The notes: generated from the sequence alone by a model not told the origin. A DNA stretch of 64,000 bases from Raillietiella orientalis (GCA_036172245.1 JAYWIR010000005.1:3596001-3660000), one strand, 5' to 3'; positions 6,871-40,770 are shown, numbered from the stretch's first letter. A program made the numbers and translations.

Positions 6871-7829
6871 ATGTTGCAACGCAATGTTTGTGCGCTTCTG
6901 CTGGGAATGTTCGTTCTGAACTGCAGTAAGTAGGGGCAATCGGAGTGAAGGGTGACCGTGCGGTGTGCGCTTGCTTGACCTCATTTTCCGCCTTGAAGAA
7001 GCAACACTTTTGTGTATCAGCGGGAAGTTTTTCCGAAGGTGCTCGAAGGAACTTCCGTCGGGGCAGCATCCGTTGCGTCTTTCTGAGTGCTGGAAACGGC
7101 GGCATGTGCGGAAAAGGAATAGGGAATTCCTAGTCGATCCGGAAATGCCCCATCCAGCATTCGTCGGGAGCACGCAAATTTGTGACCTGTTGCCGTGGGG
7201 ATCGAGTGCGACGCGACCCTAGTTCGTGAACCTTGGCGCGAAGGCGAGCCACAAGCGAGTGAGTGATTTGCTGCACTTTCAGTCCTGACCACGAAGCACG
7301 TCAGCTGCCAATACGATCCCGATGGAAACGACATTAAATGGAAATCCACTGATAGGTGAGCTACTCAAAGCGGACCTCACCTGCTTGTTTCCTGCGTATG
7401 TCCTCATGGAAGGAACTGTTGTTATGAATAACCTGGCACTTCAGGCGAGCTGCACACTTGGACGAGTGAAGTCTAGTGTGCACTCGAGCTACAGGATCTG
7501 TGGGCTCCCGGATTCTCTTGGGACTATGGACTTTTCTTATCTGAGGACTTTCCTGTCCTGAAGGGTTTCCTCTTCCCTAAGGGTTTCTTTCGATTCACCT
7601 GCTTGTCATTCTCCGCTTTCTCGAAGCATGTCTTCAAATTTGCAATGTCGATCCGTGAGATGCTTGTCATTTCTTGTCATTCGAACTTTCTTCTTGCAGG
7701 AGTCCTCGTAATGGACCTATAAAGTTACCCCAGTTGGCAACGGAAAAGGATCCGGTGGGAGGTGAGCCTTGCGATGACGATGCTGGCTGCCCAACTGCAC
7801 GCTGTCATTCCGACGAGTGTTTGCAATGA
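6871..7829 (+). CDS. Secreted cysteine-rich prepro-peptide, copy 1 (85 aa); exons 6871-6925, 7283-7355, 7700-7829
   Basis: Splice sites GTAAGT...TTTCAG and GTGAGC...TTGCAG join in frame. Product MLQRNVCALLLGMFVLNCILTTKHVSCQYDPDGNDIKWKSTDRSPRNGPIKLPQLATEKDPVGGEPCDDDAGCPTARCHSDECLQ*. AATAAA at 7839-7844. Probable 5'-UTR intron ~6764-6828. Confidence 0.85.
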
Positions 7830-8953
7830 GATTTTGTAAATAAAGTGTTTGCTTTTGTGCCTTCGATCTTCCGTTCTGCTGATTGTAGGGGATAAAGAAT
7901 TGTACTCGTGGAACAGCGAATCACTCTATCGAAGAAACGCATGCGGAATAGCCTTTCTCACACTTATCAGGGATCATGCTTCGTTCTAGCCAATTTTAGC
8001 TTTATTTCGTCTCCTTGGCGACCGGTGCGGTTTTGGAAATTCATGGATACATTGAATCTTCAGGGGGTTTCCTCCACGGTTCCAGAATATGGAGTTGTCG
8101 TGCTCTGACTGAAGCATGCAGGCAGCGTGCTCATCTTTGGAGAAGATGGACTCAACTGAACCGGTGGTTGTGGCTTCCTTCGACATCAAGGAAATTTCCG
8201 TATGTGGATTGCCAGTGTTGGTATATCATGAATTATGTTGCTCCTGGAGGCTGCACGCATCTCATGTTCGTGTTTTTCTCCGCTTGAGTGTGCGTCGCTG
8301 TGTGCTGTCCACTCTCGAGGTTTTCCCCTTTTAAGCACTTTGGCAACTCTCCGAAGCCTTTTAGCACTTTTGGCTTCACCAACGTTTCTTTAGTTCCTCG
8401 AATGCAAGAAGAGTGCTTTTTTTACTACTCAGGTGCTGAACGACGACAGCGTTTGTTGCCGTTTGCTAAGTGCATGTGATATGGAATGCAACATAGGGGA
8501 AAACAGATGATTTCTTTTGGATGCGTTATTGGAGATTTGAACTTGCAGCTGTAAGCACTTTCTAGAGATCAGAGACACTTTTCACCATAAATTGGCTTGC
8601 GTAAATGGCGTTTGCAGAGACGAATACGATGGGTTTATCGAATTGTTCGTGGATTCTTTGCTTGGGAATCTGGAATTCGACAGCCAAAAGGGAAGTGAGG
8701 CTCGTGTAGATGCTCTCTTCTCGTGAGATTGCTCTCAGATGGTGGACATTGAGGTGTGCATCTCTCTGTGTATTCTTTTGTAATTTCCCATCTATTTTTA
8801 CATGCTTTCGTGATATTGAGCCGTGGTTTGAGCATTTTCAAATGGTTGATAGTCAAGAAGTACTTCACATGCATCTGTCTTCAGTTCCTCTCTCTTATGC
8901 ACGTAATGCTTTGGAACAAGCAGATGCTATGTGTGAAATTGAGGTCTCCCCAG

Positions 8954-8980
<27 letters not shown>
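8954..8980. repeat. (TA)n microsatellite; a copy one unit longer at ~41895-41923 and another (TA)n at ~55448-55470
   Basis: Read directly from the sequence. Confidence 0.95.
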
Positions 8981-37500: not shown

Positions 37501-39811
37501 CGCCACAGTGTGTGCGGGATAAGTTGAGAGTTGCAGCGAATCTACGGAGAGCTGACATCTGGGAGTCTAGCGAGAGTCGATGGACGATTCACTTCCCCTC
37601 ATTGGCTGTCGGAATGAGATGGGAATGCGATTTGCTCGATTCAGGCATTCGCAAGGGCACGCTGTGCCTTCACAAACATCGAGAGCGTATGGGAAATGTC
37701 GAGGGTCGCTTGGGTCGCCTCTCTTGACAGAAAAAGAGCAAAAAGAACGCGGGAGTCTCCATGCAAGCGATCGAGCTCCACGTCGTTCCAGAAACCGACG
37801 ACCGCTCTGAGAAACACGGAGACCATGTATGCGTCGCGGCGGACAGCTTGCTTCATCTGTGCGCTTGCTTGTACCTGCCGCCGAAGGTCTTCGGACCGCG
37901 AAGACAGCACAGACATCAGCAGCTGCTCAAGGCACATTGCACTGTGCATGTGCTCACAGGGATCTTTTCTGCCCTCCCACTTTCTCAGTATCCCACTTCC
38001 TTCGGAACGACAAAATGCAGCCCGAAGTTATCCGAATCGCGGTCAGAATCTTGCGACTACGACCTTGAGTAATATTCTAGTCAGGGTGCCGGATTGGGCA
38101 CCCTGATACTAGATGGAATCCCACTGCAGGTGCAGTTTTGGATGCTGGCACCATGTGCCAAGATGGAAACTTCCTCGTTTTGTGCACCAGCACTCTGCAT
38201 CGCCTCATACTTTAGAGATGCGCCGTCAGCAAAGGACTACCCTTACTGCTGTGAGCTTCCGGTGCCAGATGCAGAAACCCAGCTTCCCTTCGAGACAAAT
38301 TATTTCCCTTCTAAAAGCTCATCCATTGATCTCCATCCGTTCCTTCAATATTACTGCTACGCGGCATGAGGCGGTGGTGTCCCGAAATGCATTCCAGAGA
38401 ATGTACCTGGAGGAACTCCGTTCTGTGCGCCATTTCCTTAGCCTTTCTGTGGAATACCGTGATGCAAGATTCGAAAAAGAGATCCACTCTGTCCGCCACA
38501 TCTCTCACCGCAAAGCTGTCTGTCCCTAAGGCAAGCGGCGGTAGCAGTCTCCCGGCGAGATGGGAGTTTTCCTGCACCCTCGCGCAAAGGACGAAACTCC
38601 TAGGACGATGGTAGACGCGTGATTTGGCGGATGAGACCACTCCGCGTTTCCAGGAGGAGGAACTCATCCTTAAGTGGTCCGAACTGCTAGGTAAAGCATC
38701 CGGAGAACACACGATCCATAGCTTGTGTTTGACCACATTTGTATTCCCCTTCAAGCTTGAGAAAGGCTGTTCTCCAGTTTCTACATCGGGAATTGCAGTG
38801 GAATCGGTGACTCCACCTTGATTCCAGAGGGGTTGCATTCCTGTACTGCGCCTGGGCCGGTGGCACCGGTCTTGCACCCTCTTTTGTACTGCAGTGCCCC
38901 CCGTTGAACGTGGTGCTGCCTGGCAACAGCGCTCCCGCACCAGCAGCACGCTGCCCGTGAGCTGTTTCCCCGAAGCTTCGTGCACGACGCACTCTCGACA
39001 CTGGTCTCGGCACACTGATCGCGACAAAGTGTTCCATCCGCGTGGCCGTCACGGTGCTCCGTGTGCTCCGGACGCCCCAGACGCGAAGACGAGAGAGTCC
39101 GTGGCGATGGCAGCCTCCTACTTGGGGGAGGCCGCAAGGTGAACACGCCTACAAGCACCAGTAAAGCCAATGTACAGAGCCTGTTCGGAAAAAAAGAAAC
39201 GGCAAGCAACGTCAATCCCTGTCCCCATCGCTTCCTTCGTTTCTTGTCCCTTCGTTTTCGTCCCCCGCTAAGAGTTGCGCTCACCGGACAGTCGGTGGGC
39301 TCTTCTTCCCTTCAAGTTATTTAGTGTTCGACTAAAAACTCAGATGCAAATTGAATTATTTTCCTTAAATTAACGCCCCGGCATGCCCGGGTGTAAAATT
39401 CCAGGAGAGCTACTCAAGAAGTGGGATGCACGCACGAGAATCCTTTAGGCACGCTGGCCGGCGGATGCGAGGAGAGAAATGTGCACGGGACTCGAAAACA
39501 TCAAGCGTGAAAATCCAGCGGAATTCGAAACTCTTCCGGGATGGCGAGCAGCTGGATTTAAAGGCCTCTGGGCCAATGCGCACATCATTCCTGCAATATT
39601 GCTACATCACAGGAAAGAGTGCTGGTCATCGCAGAATTTCCTCGATTCCACGTCGGTGTCTCCTCAGCTCCGTTGCCAGATCCGTGGTAAAGCATCCGTG
39701 GACCGTGAGTACGCGCGTACTTGGTGGGCGTTCCCGCAGCACTCTGTAACTGCAGTTTTCCTTCCTTAGCTTTCGTTACCATCGCGTCGTGAGAAGATCG
39801 TGGATACCAGA

Positions 39812-40770
39812 ATGTTGCAACGCAATATTTGTGCGCTTCTGCTGGGAATGTTCGTTCTGAACTGCAGTAAGTAGGGGCAATCGGAGTGAAGGGTGACCGT
39901 GCGGTGTGCGCTTGCTTGACCTCATTTTCCGCCTTGAAGAAGCAACACTTTTGTGTATCAGCGGGAAGTTTTTCCGAAGGTGCTCGAAGGAACTTCCGTC
40001 GGGGCAGCATCCGTTGCGTCTTTCTGAGTGCTGGAAACGGCGGCATGTGCGGAAAAGAAATAGGGAATTCCTAGTCGATCCGGAAATGCCCCATCCAGCA
40101 TTCGTCGGGAGCACGCAAATTTGTGACCTGTTGCCGTGGGGATCGAGTGCGACGCGACCCTAGTTCGTGAACCTTGGCGCGAAGGCGAGCCACAAGCGAG
40201 TGAGTGATTTGCTGCACTTTCAGTCCTGACCACGAAGCACGTCAGCTGCCAATACGATCCCGATGGAAACGACATTAAATGGAAATCCACTGATAGGTGA
40301 GCTACTCAAAGCGGACCTCACCTGCTTGTTTCCTGCGTATGTCCTCATGGAAGGAACTGTTGTTATGAATAACCTGGCACTTCAGGCGAGCTGCACACTT
40401 GGACGAGTGAAGTCTAGTGTGCACTCGAGCTACAGGATCTGTGGGCTCCCGGATTCTCTTGGGACTATGGACTTTTCTTATCTGAGGACTTTCCTGTCCT
40501 GAAGGGTTTCCTCTTCCCTAAGGGTTTCTTTCGATTCACCTGCTTGTCATTCTCCGCTTTCTCGAAGCATGTCTTCAAATTTGCAATGTCGATCCGTGAG
40601 ATGCTTGTCATTTCTTGTCATTCGAACTTTCTTCTTGCAGGAGTCCTCGTAATGGACCTATAAAGTTACCCCAGTTGGCAACGGAAAAGGATCCGGTGGG
40701 AGGTGAGCCTTGCGATGACGATGCTGGCTGCCCAACTGCACGCTGTCATTCCGACGAGTGTTTGCAATGA
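39812..40770 (+). CDS. Secreted cysteine-rich prepro-peptide, copy 6 (85 aa); exons 39812-39866, 40224-40296, 40641-40770
   Basis: Same product as copy 1 except V6I, which it shares with copy 4. Splice sites are intact. Confidence 0.85.

Follow-up and report, generated by a model that had tools for sequence, protein, structure and literature searches.

Does a block of DNA that recurs six times within one stretch of the Raillietiella orientalis genome represent a family of genes, and, if it does, why is the first part of these genes nearly the same in every copy when the last part is hypervariable? We addressed this question in a stretch of 64,000 nucleotides (GCA_036172245.1, JAYWIR010000005.1:3596001-3660000), which is called the window below and was analysed at its full length. 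According to our analysis of the genomic sequence, the six units are rather likely to be true protein-coding genes, arranged in a tandem and inverted cluster and comprising five distinct paralogues and one recent duplicate. With much the same degree of confidence we suggest that they encode a family of secreted, convertase-processed peptides with two disulfides, the 5' end of the gene evolving in concert and the part that encodes the mature peptide diversifying.

Gene models and signs of coding

The first 39 nt of exon 1, with no more than 3 mismatches allowed, are found at six sites of the window (6871+, 12881-, 14126+, 29666-, 33106+ and 39812+), and shuffling of the sequence (n=100) gave no match at all. 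The units that begin at these sites are designated g1 to g6 in order of position. Four of them are on the plus strand and two (g2, g4) on the minus strand, in the order g1>, <g2, g3>, <g4, g5>, g6>, with g2/g3 and g4/g5 lying head to head. The gene model was derived from an alignment of the six loci together with a scan of possible acceptors, and it is the same for each copy (Table 1). Coding exon 1 has 55 nt in all six copies and starts with an ATG preceded by A at -3; it is followed by an intron of 357 nt (6/6 copies, GTAAGT...TTTCAG), by a coding exon 2 of 73 nt, by a second intron of 326-344 nt (GTGAG...YAG) and by an exon 3 of 130, 160, 148, 130, 148 and 130 nt in g1 to g6, respectively. 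Every junction is GT..AG, and the intron phases are 1 and then 2 in each of the six copies; in g1, for instance, the donors are GTAAGT and GTGAGC, and the acceptors TTTCAG and TTGCAG. An AATAAA stands 9 nt past the stop codon in 4/6 copies, the nearest one in g5 is 92 nt past the stop, and in g2 none is present within 120 nt of it.

A preliminary description of this DNA had claimed that the repeated block splices into open precursors of 85-95 aa, and that no copy has a stop or a frameshift. Both statements agree with the models obtained here, in which the sizes of the first two exons and the intron phases are common to all six units and every frame is open. The number of genes given there has to be amended. 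The units are six, as described, but g1 and g6 are one gene duplicated: they lie inside a direct repeat of 5.5 kb (6030-11549 / 38970-44492) with 99.2% identity, and their products differ by a single residue, V6I. It follows that there are five distinct genes and five distinct mature peptides. The same repeat also carries an open reading frame (ORF) of 261 aa (10704-11489 / 43647-44432), which has no Pfam match. The pair g2/g3 forms an inverted repeat (12212-13337 / 14797-13670) with 95.4% identity, and g5 is the most divergent copy, its likeness to the others beginning only at -188.

Several observations argue for a coding function of these units. A six-frame translation of the window contains the pattern C-x5-C-x4-C-x4-C, which had been noticed in all the C-termini, at six places, all of them within a predicted exon 3, and in 100 mononucleotide shuffles of the sequence it was present 0.04 times on average and once at most. 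The exon-3 products of the other distinct genes have only 24-40% identity to the first one; when all five distinct products are aligned, the mean column identity is 45%, and six columns are invariant, namely an R, a K and the four C. At a nucleotide divergence of 35-45%, splice sites, intron phases and frame are nevertheless kept; none of the four Cys codons is lost, and the stop codon follows 2-7 codons beyond the last Cys in every copy. Intron 2, whose identity between types is just 66-76%, has likewise preserved its acceptor and pyrimidine tract.

A few details of the models may be mentioned separately. The intron that we place in the 5' untranslated region (UTR) is hypothetical. In g1 alone there is an in-frame upstream ATG (6835-6837) with no stop between it and the start codon, and translation from it would extend the precursor by 12 residues ahead of the signal peptide. 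Tandem NAGNAG acceptors are present at exon 3 of g1 (7697-7702), g3 (14951-14956), g4 (28835-28840) and g6 (40638-40643); if the downstream AG were used, one codon would be lost and, with it, the P4 Arg of the cleavage site considered below. A candidate seventh copy at ~45.1 kb was rejected: it consists of just 98 nt of the upstream region (45086-45183, +; 80% identity) and has no Cys motif. No gene is attached to this fragment, which resembles the stretch ~240-340 nt upstream of the peptide genes; it may represent either the relic of a copy or a mobile or regulatory piece that is shared.

Mosaic evolution of the unit

Identity between the copies is distributed very unevenly along the unit. 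In all 15 pairs the identity of intron 1 is 97.5-100%; that of exon 1 is 91-100%, that of exon 2 88-100%, and that of the 300 nt upstream 83-100%. For most pairs the identity falls off inside exon 2. Intron 2 is 100% identical among g1, g4 and g6 and diverges between types to the extent given above, and exon 3 has an identity of 60-65%.

Two pairs demonstrate the boundaries best. Between g1 and g4 the identity is 95.9% in the 5' flank (34/839 mismatches) and 99.9% from the ATG to nt 25 of exon 3 (1/854), drops to 55% in the mature-coding part (45/100), and is 86.2% in the 3' flank (84/610), the difference between the mature-coding part and the 3' flank having a Fisher p of 1e-11. Between g3 and g5 it is 97.2% from -188 to +449 (18/638), 72.2% in intron 2 (86/309), 55.6% in exon 3 (63/142) and 97.0% in the 3' flank, which starts here 13 nt past the stop (14/466); exon 3 is thereby less identical than intron 2 (p 8e-4). 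The nearest neighbours of g3 are g4 and g6 in the upstream region, g2 in intron 2 and g5 downstream. Since the nearest neighbour shifts along the unit and no single tree fits, recombination or gene conversion is required.

We propose that recombination or gene conversion among the copies would hold near-identical the module from promoter to exon 2, together with the 3' flank of some pairs, and that selection would keep the mature-peptide segments distinct and drive amino-acid change there. Two other causes of the conservation of the 5' module were considered and rejected. ORFs within it, sense or antisense, gave 0/5 Pfam matches at E up to 1, and the fold z-score of intron 1, taken as a possible structured RNA, is an unremarkable -1.6.

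The ratio of non-synonymous to synonymous divergence (dN/dS, Nei-Gojobori) of exon 3 is 1.16 for g1-g4 and 1.03 for g3-g5, which are the two least saturated pairs. Dropping the Cys columns, along with alignment columns 1-8, which extend across the conserved beginning of the mature peptide, raises it to 1.54 and 1.27, respectively. The mismatches in the mature part of g1-g4 are distributed over codon positions 1, 2 and 3 as 16, 19 and 10.

It may be supposed, on the other hand, that the genes are real and that their hypervariable 3' half simply belongs to old paralogues under weak constraint save at the Cys, with recent conversion having overwritten the 5' half and some of the 3' flanks and with no diversifying selection. 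The non-coding intron 2 is likewise diverged between types, and the sharp 5' breakpoints resemble the ends of conversion tracts, as this explanation would have it; dN/dS spans 0.24 to 1.16, dS is saturated in 8/10 pairs, and the values near 1 come from 35-45 codons, so few that relaxed constraint is a possible cause of them. Exon 3 of g3-g5, however, falls significantly below the adjoining intron 2 and also below the 3' flank, and the low-identity stretch of g1-g4 is just the mature-coding part, where codon positions 1 and 2 are favoured for change. We consider an origin by conversion and weak constraint unlikely, if by no means negligible, and prefer diversification of the mature part by selection.

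Precursor, proposed processing and predicted fold

The first 27 residues had been described as nearly invariant and hydrophobic, and this is borne out: they vary at 4 positions only across the copies, and the 15-residue hydropathy maximum of 2.6 lies at residues 6-20, with an Arg before it. Small residues at 18, 21 and 22 are possible -1 sites for signal cleavage. At the exon 2/3 junction the positions P4-P1 read RSPR, RNKR, RSNR, RSPR, SDDR and RSPR in g1 to g6, which gives a furin-type R-x-x-R in 5/6 copies and an invariant Arg at P1. Exon 3 opens with exactly 10 nt of the pro region, that is 1 nt and three codons, the last of which is this invariant Arg. The predicted mature peptides have 39-49 aa, charges from -5.2 to +1.7 and isoelectric points (pI) of 4.2-8.5; the mature part contains four Cys in 4/5 distinct products and six in g5.

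It would be logical to suggest the following course of processing. The hydrophobic N-terminus (residues 6-20) would direct the precursor into the secretory pathway and be cut off near residues 18-22, and a furin-type convertase would cleave behind the invariant Arg that is encoded early in exon 3, releasing a peptide of 39-49 aa. This peptide may be composed of a flexible and variable N-terminal half and a 17-residue C-terminal core, in which two disulfides would hold a turn and a beta-hairpin. AlphaFold2, applied to two paralogues with the five-sequence alignment each, predicted the same short turn and two-stranded hairpin over the Cys core; the predicted local distance difference test (pLDDT), taken by block, was 79-84 and 88-90 for the Cys core and 52-63 for the N-terminal half.

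Searches for relatives and the probable role of the peptides

Relatives were sought in a collection of 5.8 billion clustered proteins and in a profile library of 1.84 billion representatives. One exon-3 product had no relative among the proteins of 75-2000 aa of the former collection. The alignment of the five sequences yielded 120 word-sharing candidates among proteins of 92-2000 aa, none of them at E up to 1, and no relative among those of 23-91 aa. Neither metagenome contigs nor viral contigs had any locus with an exact 36-nt pattern of exon 1 (0 in each). For one exon-3 product the ESM Atlas gave a best score of 0.77, to be taken as a lead only. In Pfam no family reaches its threshold on any of the five exon-3 products, the matches below threshold being LEAP-2, Dickkopf_N, Conotoxin_I2, Nodulin_late, Toxin_29, CCCH zinc finger and WAP.

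The profile search of the 1.84 billion representatives produced 46 matches at E up to 0.001, all of them via the Cys core alone, and most became significant through several repeats per protein. The exact Cys spacing is present in 38/46, and 37 add to it an acidic signature before the second Cys. Pfam, run on 18/46, named DUF7107, Dumpy_DPY, Dickkopf_N, EB, UPF0506 and LEAP-2, with the bacterial TSP3 (TSP3_bac) in one. Among PDB sequences the nearest were 1oig, a Dumpy DPY module (E 0.025, the alignment having a gap of one residue), the nicastrin module of 4r12 (E 0.032) and LEAP-2 2l1q (E 0.069). When the two models were compared with the PDB by Foldseek, nothing matched at E up to 0.001, and VIA-align wide yielded nothing at Z >= 2; over 19 columns the g2 model could be superposed on 4r12 at 1.4 A (E 5.5). 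As the matches come only via the Cys core, we regard this core as one copy of a four-cysteine mini-module that is common, the resemblance of such a lone copy staying below significance. As an observation in its own right, the 17-residue pattern C-x2-[DNS]-x-[DE]-C-x4-C-x4-C repeats in many unnamed secreted proteins with lipoprotein-like N-termini, some apparently bacterial, and it seems to be a widespread mini-domain thinly covered by Pfam. The precursor as a whole, judged from its predicted sequence, is without a detectable relative in the collections searched. The earlier opinion that no named family can be assigned holds accordingly across Pfam, the protein collections, the PDB and the fold searches, none of which gave a significant match to the whole precursor.

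A conserved scaffold with a diversifying mature segment is typical of peptides that act on molecules of other organisms. By analogy, the probable role of the peptides is that of ligands of a toxin-like, defence or effector kind. We prefer a ligand role to that of a classical cationic, membrane-active antimicrobial peptide because of the range of the predicted charges.

One may also think of endogenous signals, hormone-like or acting as receptor antagonists in the style of LEAP-2, or of classical antimicrobial peptides after all. The core spacing of LEAP-2 is the same and aligns to ours gap-free in the 2l1q match, one product has a weak match to the Pfam LEAP-2 family (E 0.046), and LEAP-2 also shares three exons and the signal, pro and mature layout, as passages of PMC11767564 describe it. 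However, every LEAP-2 match is sub-threshold, and the same passages have the mature part of LEAP-2 conserved over the prepro part, the reverse of the pattern found here; the peptides are not predicted to be cationic, and many diversified copies would be unusual for a hormone. We therefore give endogenous signalling or classical antimicrobial action a rather low probability, and retain toxin-like, defence or effector ligands as the probable role.

Strength of the interpretation

Besides the saturation of dS and the small number of codons already discussed, several points weigh against the interpretation as a family of secreted and processed peptides. The near-identical 5' module gives no independent sign of coding constraint, and the gene models are known here from the genomic sequence of the window alone. 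Among the 5.8 billion clustered proteins there is none, annotated or predicted, that resembles the exon-3 products, and therefore no gene caller or transcriptome in that collection backs the model. The signal peptide and its cleavage site were judged by simple hydropathy and small-residue rules. In g5 the P4 residue is Ser, so that R-x-x-R is absent, and this copy also lacks the upstream region that the other copies have in common. Finally, the g1/g6 pair with its 5.5-kb repeat could be an assembly artefact instead of a recent duplication.

A more radical idea, to which we would give only a small chance, is that of a germline diversification, in which a mature-peptide cassette of ~100-500 nt is exchanged or mutated far faster than the arms that flank it. 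In two gene pairs the arms around such a cassette have an identity of 97-100% (5' arm) and 86-97% (3' arm). Were the idea true, directed recombination or mutation would, besides selection, generate the peptide repertoire. A directed mechanism has long been suspected for the hyperdivergence of conotoxins and, to our knowledge, never demonstrated.

It is very improbable that the units are non-functional repeats, be it a duplicated pseudogene or a fragment of a mobile element with fortuitous spliced frames: the repeat-rich surroundings, in which 0/71 further ORFs of at least 100 aa (2-38.5 kb) have a Pfam match, the long antisense ORFs that overlap the 5' module and the failure of the peptides to find a known relative in the protein collections searched would suit such an origin, but five diverged versions retain the frame, the splice sites, the four Cys codons and the position of the stop, the motif count is far above that expected, and the antisense ORFs are themselves without a family match.

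The family of diversifying secreted peptides, which we continue to favour, would have some consequences. If expressed, the genes represent an unannotated family of processed, disulfide-stabilised peptides and a possible source of new bioactive ligands. Such genes slip past both ORF-based and similarity-based annotation. With five distinct paralogues within 34 kb, short introns and sharp boundaries between identical and hypervariable parts, the locus is convenient for study, and it suits in particular the question of how homogenisation by gene conversion coexists with diversification of the mature peptide, a question which is hard to approach in cone snails because of introns longer than 3 kb.

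Genomic context

The cluster DNA has ~50% GC (~46-62% to the left of ~46-48 kb) and a CpG observed/expected ratio of 0.8-1.0; from ~46-48 kb rightward the GC content falls sharply to 33-39%. The AT-rich part contains a multi-exon homologue of CDC16/APC6 that is far nearer to human CDC16 (E 3e-33) than to fission-yeast Cut9 (2e-10) or budding-yeast CDC16 (2.5e-10), as would suit the genome of an animal, and the CpG observed/expected ratio there is 0.52. On compositional grounds, this contrast suggests methylated housekeeping genes and unmethylated peptide genes of an invertebrate animal.

Around the cluster no other recognisable genes were found among the 71 ORFs mentioned, and the window contained nothing recognised by scans for Rfam families, tRNAs or tandem repeats. 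There are two copies of a non-LTR (long terminal repeat) retroelement, related to each other with 69% identity (101-1388 vs 16209-17498). The surrounding retroelements had been called decayed, which is correct for the second copy, broken over several frames, and not for the first one, where the reverse-transcriptase frame is open. An ORF of 459 aa is possibly ORF1 of a retroelement on the opposite strand.

Table 1. Positions of the peptide genes, of their parts and of neighbouring features in the window
Feature	Position	Strand	Exons or content	Product	AATAAA	Core
Gene g1	6871..7829	+	6871-6925, 7283-7355, 7700-7829	85 aa	7839-7844	7770-7820
Gene g2	11899..12881	-	12881-12827, 12469-12397, 12058-11899	95 aa		11920-11970
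Gene g3	14126..15101	+	14126-14180, 14538-14610, 14954-15101	91 aa	15111-15116	15042-15092
Gene g4	28708..29666	-	29666-29612, 29254-29182, 28837-28708	85 aa	28698-28693	28717-28767
Gene g5	33106..34064	+	33106-33160, 33518-33590, 33917-34064	91 aa		34005-34055
Gene g6 (g1 duplicate)	39812..40770	+	39812-39866, 40224-40296, 40641-40770	85 aa	40780-40785	
Homogenised 5' module (g1)	6478..7330	+	upstream region, putative 5'-UTR intron, exon 1, intron 1, first two thirds of exon 2			
Hypothetical 5'-UTR intron (g1)	6764-6828	+	only basis: GT..polypyrimidine-AG kept in all copies			
Hypervariable mature-coding segment (g1)	7725..7826	+	45 mismatches per 100 aligned sites vs g4			
Non-LTR retroelement copy	2-2365	+	reverse-transcriptase frame open for 787 aa			
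Non-LTR retroelement copy	15837-18571	+	split over several frames; RVT_1 (reverse transcriptase, 15837-16967) and zf-RVT matches			
ORF	3194-4573	-	weak zinc-knuckle (CCHC) match	459 aa		
CDC16/APC6 homologue	55795-58804	+	multi-exon; ANAPC3 domain and tetratricopeptide repeat (TPR) matches			

Comparison with known systems

A search of the literature by keyword led to no matching family beyond conotoxins, MgCRP-I and LEAP-2; sequences are not comparable in that way, so the family may be published. According to passages of PMC3862624, genes of the conotoxin superfamilies I1, M, O, P and S of Conus have three exons that correspond approximately to signal, pro and mature parts, with a phase 1 and then a phase 2 intron; their introns show conservation inside a superfamily and exceed 3 kb, and divergence climbs toward exon 3. 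The conotoxin-style organisation that had been proposed for our locus agrees with these passages both in the roles of the exons and in the intron phases. Like conotoxin genes, all six copies have three coding exons with phases 1 and 2, a signal exon of high identity (91-100%), an exon 3 of low identity (60-65%) and a fixed cysteine frame, here of four columns; unlike them, they have introns of only 326-357 nt. Homology to conotoxins is without support, as the sole match, to Conotoxin_I2, has 14.7 bits against a cut-off of 27 and concerns 1/5 exon-3 products. The four-Cys spacing matches no conotoxin family in a comparison by Pfam models.

The gene layout likewise resembles that of MgCRP-I of the mussel Mytilus galloprovincialis. 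Passages of PMC4558851 describe a 5'-UTR exon, a first coding exon of 17 residues with a phase-1 intron, a pro exon of ~100 nt with a phase-2 intron, and a last exon whose first part holds the 10 terminal nt of the pro region together with the convertase site. As far as this description goes, our genes are like MgCRP-I in the conserved pre-pro region and hypervariable mature part, in ~17-18 signal residues in the first coding exon and in the same remainder of 10 nt; the likeness is one of layout as described. MgCRP-I has six Cys in the array C-C-CC-C-C and KR or RR sites, and its mature peptides are basic. Our genes predict four Cys (six in g5, in another array), mostly R-x-x-R sites and a pI of 4.2-8.5.

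The 17-residue four-Cys motif is shared with Dumpy DPY (PF21164), DUF7107, the C-terminal part of Dickkopf_N and residues 520-539 of nicastrin 4r12. In those cases, some of them probably bacterial, it forms tandem modules of larger proteins, whereas here one module ends a processed peptide. The second loop of the DPY module is one residue longer, and no product matches PF21164 (0/5 at E up to 10). Dickkopf_N (PF04706) matches 1/5 products with 17.1 bits against a cut-off of 25, over profile positions 29-50 of 51. The link to legume nodule-specific cysteine-rich (NCR) peptides that had been drawn in the preliminary description comes down to a match below threshold: Nodulin_late (PF07127) matches 1/5 products with 13.5 bits against 30.4.

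LEAP-2, according to passages of the review PMC11767564, is encoded by three exons and made as a signal/pro/mature precursor, and it carries two disulfides; its mature peptide is more conserved than the prepro part, and these passages report no lower-chordate homologue. Our peptides resemble it in C-x5-C-x4-C-x4-C and in an acidic patch before the second Cys, in the gap-free though sub-threshold alignment already given. They are unlike it in that only 1/5 products matches PF07359, with 14 bits against a cut-off of 27, the other four having no match, and in that LEAP-2, a vertebrate gene present as a single copy, encodes a mature peptide both conserved and cationic, whereas the present genes are multi-copy and variable and their products not cationic. 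CpG is not depleted in the window, which counts against a vertebrate. There is a small chance that the peptides are invertebrate relatives of LEAP-2. Taken together, the exon architecture of these genes is familiar, and the peptide family itself appears to be new, differing from MgCRP-I as published in its Cys array and giving no above-threshold match to the conotoxin models of Pfam.

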